DNA from: Escherichia coli
GTDB taxonomy: Bacteria; Pseudomonadota; Gammaproteobacteria; Enterobacterales; Enterobacteriaceae
Reading direction: 5' to 3' (one strand)
Assembly (NCBI RefSeq): GCF_002854065.1
Contig: NZ_CP024147.1
DNA: 64,000 nt
The stretch's first letter is position 1. Each line of letters opens with the position of its first letter. The notes beneath the pieces are model-generated. The model was not told the origin of the DNA. It did no database searches and saw nothing but the letters and a program-made list of their open reading frames with translations. This document shows, one piece after another, positions 37,225 to 37,433 of the stretch. Both the position numbers and the translations under genes were made by a program.

Positions 37225-37389
37225 TTATTGTGGTCGGTGACGCTGACTCTGGCAGATCTGACCCGTTTTTACATAATCGAGAAATGCGCGCAAGCCGCAG
37301 GACATATACTGGCGGTTTGGGTAATACATTTGGAAGCTGTGCTGTAAGGGCGTTAGAAATAGAGCTCTGAATTATTTATGCAGCGCGGA

Positions 37390-37423
37390 ATAAAAAAGCG
37401 GCAACTCAATAAAGTTGCCGCTT
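37390..37423 (-). terminator. pflA rho-independent terminator
   Basis: Minus-strand hairpin AGCGGCAAC-N9-GTTGCCGCT followed by TTTTTTTA. Confidence 0.6.
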
Positions 37424-37433
37424 TACGGGGAAA

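Follow-up and report, generated by a model that had tools for sequence, protein, structure and literature searches.

The interval between ycaM and pflA was analysed in a 64-kb stretch of E. coli DNA (the window, to which all positions refer unless another locus is named), and its features are collected in Table 1. The TAA stop codon of ycaM occupies 37222-37224, and the minus-strand stop codon of pflA occupies 37434-37436, leaving a gap of 209 bp (37225-37433), exactly as a preceding sequence-only reading of this DNA had placed it. Both flanking genes are intact, their products are 100% identical to K-12-type YcaM and PflA, and ycaM aligns without gaps to its counterpart in L002 (NZ_CP148357), a K-12-like reference locus that has the same layout as BW25113 and whose flanks are nearer to the window than those of BW25113. 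In BW25113 itself (K-12), the gene order is ycaD, ycaM(+), ycaN(-), ycaK(+), and pflA(-), with 1,680 bp between the stop codons of ycaM and pflA, which bears out the order that the same reading had given.

Table 1. Features of the ycaM-pflA interval and its flanking genes in the window
Feature	Position	Strand	Evidence
ycaM, APC-family amino-acid permease, 476 aa, intact	35794..37224	+	tblastn 100% over residues 1-476; Pfam AA_permease_2, E=2.6e-29
ycaN 3' remnant (pseudogene stub): stop codon and last 36-37 codons	37225..37337	-	113 bp, 97.3% identical to L002 4526-4638; tblastn
Deletion junction	37332..37338	.	Ungapped comparison of both K-12 sides with the window
Probable diverged relic: last few ycaK codons (stop relic TAA, 37345-37347) and ycaK-pflA spacer	37338..37391	+	Shuffle-tested alignments
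pflA intrinsic terminator hairpin	37395..37424	-	13-pair stem with 6 GC pairs, then TTTATT (terminator scan)
pflA, pyruvate formate-lyase 1 activating enzyme, 246 aa, intact	37434..38174	-	tblastn 100% over residues 1-246 at 38174-37437; RefSeq annotation of identical loci

Intact YcaN contains an HTH_1 domain (PF00126, residues 7-63) and a LysR_substrate domain (PF03466, residues 91-290), and intact YcaK has a Flavodoxin_2 (PF02525)/FMN_red fold in Pfam. YcaK yielded no tblastn match across the entire 64-kb window, the sole YcaN match there comprised residues 267-302 at 37228-37335 (tblastn, 97%, E=2e-19), and the 1,511-bp K-12-type segment that represents the deleted part gave no blastn match anywhere within it. 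The absence of ycaN and ycaK, as the sequence-only reading had described it, thus stands; its statement that the gap holds only the pflA terminator has to be given up, as a 3' remnant of ycaN takes up 113 of the 209 bp and a probable relic of the ycaK end and spacer lies beside it. The window is like the K-12-type ycaM-ycaN-ycaK-pflA locus (BW25113/MG1655; b0899-b0902 region) in its flanking elements, namely ycaD, ycaM, the pflA terminator, pflA, and pflB, with an identical terminator hairpin and a ycaN 3' end that is identical over its first 96 bp. It differs from that locus (i) by lacking what is probably 1,476 bp, in which lie codons 1-266 of ycaN, the divergent promoters, and almost the whole of ycaK, (ii) by three differences adjoining the junction, and (iii) by a diverged spacer with a net gain of five bases.

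The ycaN stub has lost the HTH domain and most of the substrate-binding domain, with ~24 LysR_substrate residues (of 91-290) remaining, and its 37-aa translation gave no Pfam match. Accordingly, it has neither the N-terminal HTH_1 nor the complete LysR_substrate domain of a functional ycaN, and it has the properties of a ycaN pseudogene, namely nucleotide and amino acid homology, the syntenic position and orientation, and a truncated length. The sequence-only reading had taken homologs of either gene within 37225..37433 to count against it; such a homolog does exist in the form of this stub, and it refines the absence rather than overturning it. The same stretch is annotated in RefSeq as 'incomplete; partial in the middle of a contig; missing N-terminus' in Combat11I9, VTEC+, and O157:H7 PV15-279, the last two of which have a 209-bp sequence identical to that of the window. 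RefSeq (PGAP) names this partial pseudogene of O157:H7 and other strains either 'LysR family transcriptional regulator' or 'hypothetical protein'; the window is another carrier of the allele, with no difference of substance. Antisense to the stub, on the plus strand, lie a sigma-70-like match (37249-37277, CTGGCA-17-CATAAT, 9/12), in a region where the promoter count equals the shuffle expectation, and a 46-aa GTG-start ORF (37230-37370) with no Pfam match. Both are probably chance occurrences, and the ORF was considered as a gene and set aside as spurious.

The pflA terminator begins 10 nt past the pflA stop codon and combines a GC-rich hairpin with a T-tract on the pflA strand (minus-strand T-tract at ~37386-37394), as is expected of an intrinsic terminator. 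A repeat search recovered it as a perfect 12-nt inverted repeat (I2), and it is identical in K-12-type loci. Viewed on the plus strand, the pflA hairpin now faces ycaM rather than ycaK, and its T-run in that direction amounts to no more than TTT.

Junction, breakpoints, and direction of the change

Alignment to K-12-type loci, which the sequence-only reading had proposed, maps the breakpoints. In blastn against L002, the left homology ends at 37337 (L002 4638) and the right homology restarts at 37378 (L002 6150), so that 1,511 bp of L002 stand opposite 40 unaligned window bases. At the junction, the ycaN side, …TTTGGAAGC, is fused to the ycaK side, TGTGCTGTAAG…. The parental breakpoints share an imperfect 10-nt match, namely ATCTGGAAGC in ycaN and ATATGGTAGA near the ycaK end, that agrees at 7 of 10 positions, overlaps the junction, and is not above chance; because this microhomology is imperfect, the position of the junction, which has since diverged, is uncertain by ~5 nt. 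The short flanking direct repeats that the reading had suggested looking for come down to this 7/10 match, and none is real.

On the ycaK side of the junction, 37338-37391 is homologous to the E. albertii spacer (0 of 2,000 shuffles reached the alignment score) and marginally so to the ycaK-end/spacer region of E. coli SCPM-O-B-8794 (L007; 21 of 2,000 shuffles), which retains GATGCACTATAA, the end of ycaK. Its alignment to the K-12-type spacer was not significant in the shuffle test, and the 40 bases at 37338-37377 gave no blastn match in the K-12-type locus, in a locus lacking ycaM (L004), or in one with a bcs-type insert (L005). Judged from these alignments, 37338-37391 is probably the decayed ycaK stop region together with the ycaK-pflA spacer. 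If the TAA at 37345-37347 is read as the ycaK stop codon, the deletion would probably correspond to L002 4639-6114 (~1,476 bp), with a net five extra bases in the spacer. No Flavodoxin_2 ORF is present in the window, and at most ~10-16 nt of ycaK, stop codon included, would persist as a relic. Two further candidates for the origin of the unmatched bases were rejected: no match was found that would make 37338-37377 an inverted piece of the deleted segment, and strain Z30, considered as a bridge to the window spacer on account of its divergent intact allele (98.4%), has an ordinary K-12-type spacer.

The last 36 codons and the stop codon of ycaN directly abut the ycaM stop codon, exactly as in K-12. 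Because the stub lies at the K-12 position and in the K-12 frame and orientation, the window state descends from a ycaN-ycaK-bearing ancestor by deletion; loss here and insertion in K-12, which the sequence-only reading had treated as equivalent, are therefore distinguishable. The converse, that ycaM next to pflA is ancestral and ycaN-ycaK was inserted in the K-12 lineage, would suit the somewhat AT-rich composition of the two genes (47% GC in ycaN and 43% in ycaK, against 51% in the window), and it would suit the arrangement in Citrobacter, Salmonella arizonae/diarizonae, Kluyvera, Yokenella, and Pluralibacter, where pflA follows ycaM after ~50-160 bp and comparisons at the protein and DNA level show no sign of either ycaN or ycaK. 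However, an insertion cannot create a gene whose 3' end pre-existed, and the truncated 3' end of ycaN is found in the window at its exact K-12 position and frame. Moreover, ycaN-ycaK occupies the syntenic site both in Pseudocitrobacter corydidari (79% YcaN) and in a diverged contig with the order ycaM'-ycaN-ycaK-pflA' (86% YcaN), and the pair at this locus is thus much older than K-12. An insertion in the K-12 lineage is accordingly extremely improbable. An insertion deep in the history of the Enterobacteriaceae may well have occurred, and the window state is secondary.

As to mechanism, the deletion most likely arose by illegitimate recombination, that is, non-homologous or guided by weak microhomology, with no mobile element involved. 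Such an event would have removed ~1,476 bp, made up of ycaN codons 1-266, the 99 bp of divergent promoter region between ycaN and ycaK, and ycaK itself apart from its last few codons, and would have left behind the 113-bp ycaN stub, the decayed ycaK-stop/spacer relic, and an untouched pflA terminator; the net five extra bases of the spacer would stem from later indels.

A mobile element could in principle have caused the loss, for instance through an IS insertion followed by adjacent deletion or excision, with the 40 unaligned bases as its scar. IS3 and IS1 insertions do occur within ycaN and ycaK in some E. coli genomes, and the 40 bases fail to align to K-12-type sequence; however, their homology to the E. 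albertii spacer and, marginally, to the L007 ycaK-end/spacer region marks them as native sequence, and the junction lacks repeats, inverted or direct, that could pass for IS ends or target duplications, so that we consider this origin very unlikely. A repeat search of 36900-37700 returned the terminator hairpin and chance-level short repeats only, with no IS-like ends, target duplications, or direct repeats, and the junction bears no terminal inverted repeats, target-site duplication, or residual IS. Likewise, no tRNA lies in 33000-42000, no integrase is found among the annotated neighbours in K-12-type loci, and no direct repeats lie at the breakpoints, where an excised island would be expected to show an adjacent tRNA or tmRNA, an integrase, and att-like direct repeats. 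No Rfam family was detected at the junction, a scan of 36500-38500 at a permissive E-value having given two sub-threshold chance matches, both upstream of pflA. The sequence-only reading had likewise seen no mobile-element scar, and these searches agree with it.

That ycaN-ycaK was collapsed or lost in assembling the window is vanishingly improbable, as the same contiguous sequence is present in 1,021 independently assembled complete genomes and is annotated consistently. Taken with its explanation as a whole, the reading of the window as an old deletion allele of the ycaM-ycaN-ycaK-pflA locus is one that we hold with high confidence.

Distribution and age of the junction allele

We surveyed 5,426 complete RefSeq E. 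coli genomes for the state of the locus. The ycaN-ycaK segment is present in 3,341 of them (full-length in 3,318), and the window junction is found in 1,021 at ≥80% query coverage (a longer query gave 1,022), among them O157:H7, which matches at 100% identity. In a third state, which accounts for 1,047 genomes, ycaM, ycaN, and ycaK are all lacking and the ycaD terminator runs almost without a gap into that of pflA, and ~17 have other states, such as that of strain 06-00048, in which ycaM is followed by EAL, GGDEF, and bcsA genes. The sequence-only reading had proposed a lineage-specific deletion; the deletion is upheld, and the narrow lineage-specificity is not, given a junction shared by 1,021 of 5,426 E. 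coli genomes and by E. albertii.

The less common states have features of their own. In a representative of the third state (L004; NZ_CP024650, BH100), positions 5997-6000 correspond to window 35635-37391, ~4-8 bp separate the ycaD and pflA terminators, and there is no ycaM, stub, or spacer; the right breakpoint of this state is window position 37392, within ~15 bp of the point at which the window's K-12-type homology restarts. Rare genomes represented by L005 (NZ_CP015229, 06-00048; 5526-10524) and L023 (E. coli E69) have ycaM, then ~1.1 kb of unannotated DNA, and then genes for an EAL-domain protein, a GGDEF-domain protein, and BcsA (cellulose synthase), with no ycaN-ycaK-pflA. In these, identity to the window is only 91% over the last 524 bp of ycaM, ~97% over ycaC-ycaD-ycaM as a whole, and 99% for the YcaM protein; no pflA lies within 7 kb downstream of ycaM in L023. 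An IS3-family element inside ycaN or an IS1B inside ycaK is seen in NZ_CP080075 (H31) and NZ_CP060933 (H32), which adds independent inactivations of this gene pair.

In a 15-kb comparison, strains 100416 and CUWW06 match the window exactly, and O157:H7 and O145:H28 strains match it at 99.5% identity. The 209-bp spacer shows 0-3 differences among five strains whose ycaM genes differ at up to 34 of 1,431 positions (flanks up to 2.4%), a pattern that indicates one allele of single origin within E. coli, carried on varied flanks. Intact and deleted alleles differ at 37321, 37327, and 37330 in every sequence compared (three intact and five deleted), all within 17 bp of the junction, and the other 96 bp of the stub are identical between them, which is in keeping with an old indel around which recombination has homogenised the flanking sequence. 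There was no signal of a recent sweep of the intact segment, in which 6 to 25 positions differ per 1,680 bp, a diversity close to that of the flanks.

Two strains with the deletion allele depart from the window nearby. In L052 (NZ_OZ392436, DG341-1; 2235-4201), pflA is annotated 19 codons longer (798 bp), and a phage integrase gene directly follows it in place of the pflA-pflB intergenic region and pflB, which suggests a prophage integrated between pflB and pflA. In Combat11I9 (L001; NZ_CP021726, 2094-3525), which is 100% identical to the window over 36700-37900 and has one gap over 4.3 kb, ycaM is annotated as frameshifted (1,432 bp), whereas the window ycaM is intact; the frameshift is either genuine or due to a sequencing error in that record.

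E. albertii NBRC 107761 has the same junction position, the same stub end, a homologous spacer, and TGTGCT(G/A)TAAG on the right side, within flanks that show species-level divergence from E. coli (220 of 1,431 positions in ycaM and 58 of 741 in pflA). With identity by descent judged from the junction position and from this one E. albertii genome, the deletion probably dates to or before the divergence of E. coli and E. albertii, or else to an equally old transfer between them.

Other junctions occur in Escherichia. Escherichia sp. MOD1-EC7003 (L006), E. coli SCPM-O-B-8794 (L007), and Escherichia sp. E1V33 (L008) have also lost both genes; each retains a 3' stub of ycaN together with the pflA terminator, and the right breakpoint in each falls no more than ~20 nt from the ycaK stop codon. 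They differ from the window in what is retained: the first keeps 157 bp of ycaN and ~5 nt of ycaK, and the other two keep ~103 bp of ycaN and 16 nt of ycaK. The pair has therefore been lost at least two times in Escherichia, and probably three, in a count made without the ycaM-less E. coli state and the IS3/IS1 insertions.

If the junctions of E. coli and E. albertii were independent products of recurrent deletion at one weak microhomology, the allele in E. coli would postdate the separation of the two species. The imperfect 10-nt microhomology at the breakpoints would agree with such recurrence, as would the at least two other independent ycaN-ycaK deletions in Escherichia, all of which end within ~20 nt of the ycaK stop codon; in addition, the spacer motif that E. 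albertii has in common with the window (CTGAATTA…) also occurs in L007 and L008 and may be an ancestral feature that does not mark the deletion. However, a 7/10 match makes a poor recurrent hotspot, the two stubs are equal in length, and both junctions carry the derived TGTGCT(G/A)TAAG on the ycaK side, where intact alleles and those of L007 and L008 have GATGCACTATAAG. We therefore judge independent origins to be distinctly unlikely and retain an allele common to both species by descent or old transfer.

A further proposal, which we put forward tentatively and regard as rather doubtful, is that the intact and deleted alleles form a very long-lived polymorphism, dating at least to the E. coli/E. 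albertii split and kept in E. coli by selection or interspecies exchange. Balancing or fluctuating selection on YcaN-dependent control of formate/anaerobic genes (ycaC, ycaD, and focA-pflB) may be responsible, or else old interspecies exchange. If the proposal were true, the repeated independent losses in Escherichia would point to conditional costs of YcaN/YcaK.

Expected consequences for the strain and variation at the locus

In a K-12 ycaN mutant, expression of the adjacent genes was altered (ycaC lower, ycaD and focA higher) and formate utilisation was defective (PMC9068703). Published mentions of ycaK are mostly of a candidate nitro/quinone reductase included in enzyme libraries. Reasoning from gene content, we would expect the strain to be without YcaN, a LysR regulator, and without YcaK, a flavodoxin-like NAD(P)H oxidoreductase; ycaM would now converge directly on pflA, and the YcaN-dependent control of neighbours described in K-12 (ycaC, ycaD, and focA, per PMC9068703) would be absent. 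Approximately 19% of complete E. coli genomes, O157:H7 included, are natural ycaN-ycaK nulls, and another 19% also lack ycaM. As these strains are without ycaN-ycaK, results on YcaN from K-12 do not transfer to them. The other Escherichia deletion junctions, the IS3/IS1 insertions, and the 1,047 genomes that are also without ycaM suggest that the gene pair is dispensable.

The window thus carries a common accessory-gene polymorphism that is already visible in RefSeq annotation and represents no new type of system or mechanism. Its value lies chiefly in annotation and comparative genomics, and it is mildly interesting only for the apparent age of the allele, which is common to E. albertii, and for the repeated independent loss of the gene pair. 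No dedicated description of ycaN/ycaK presence or absence, or of their distribution across phylogroups, was found in the literature. The genome comparisons of K-12 with O157:H7 made in 2001 by Perna et al. and by Hayashi et al. reportedly catalogued K-12-specific segments ('K-islands'). The present case resembles them as a short K-12 segment that is missing from O157:H7 between conserved flanks, but differs in that the polarity here is a deletion in the O157-type allele and in that the allele extends far beyond O157 and into E. albertii.

A YcaM-based scan with one genome per species gave 41 loci, which were mapped by tblastn and blastn. The ycaD/ycaM-pflA interval is a long-standing and recurrent site of gene gain and loss in the Enterobacteriaceae. 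P. corydidari has ycaK-ycaN (YcaN 79%) between pflA and ycaD, with no ycaM; in this genome (L047, CP087880), ycaN overlaps the 3' end of ycaD, and an extra divergent pair, namely a second LysR regulator and a CBAH (choloylglycine hydrolase family) protein, lies between pflA and ycaK (3217-5278). In Citrobacter werkmanii, the slot holds PTS genes (EIIA/EIIB/EIIC-GAT), a split transketolase, and RpiR, and comparable sets of ORFs are found in Citrobacter sp. Cu233 and in two Kluyvera. The cluster spans ~5 kb between ycaM and pflA in these four genomes (C. werkmanii, L011; Citrobacter sp. Cu233, L013; Kluyvera genomosp. 3, L033; and K. georgiana, L042, respectively), and its genes, as assigned by Pfam in C. 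werkmanii only, encode PTS EIIA_2, the N-terminal and pyr/C halves of a transketolase, EIIC-GAT, PTS_IIB, and an RpiR regulator. After the cluster, C. werkmanii also encodes a 264-aa protein with no Pfam match, homologues of which alone fill the slot in L016 and L021; the cargo of the slot in other Citrobacter is a secreted-looking protein of 264 aa.
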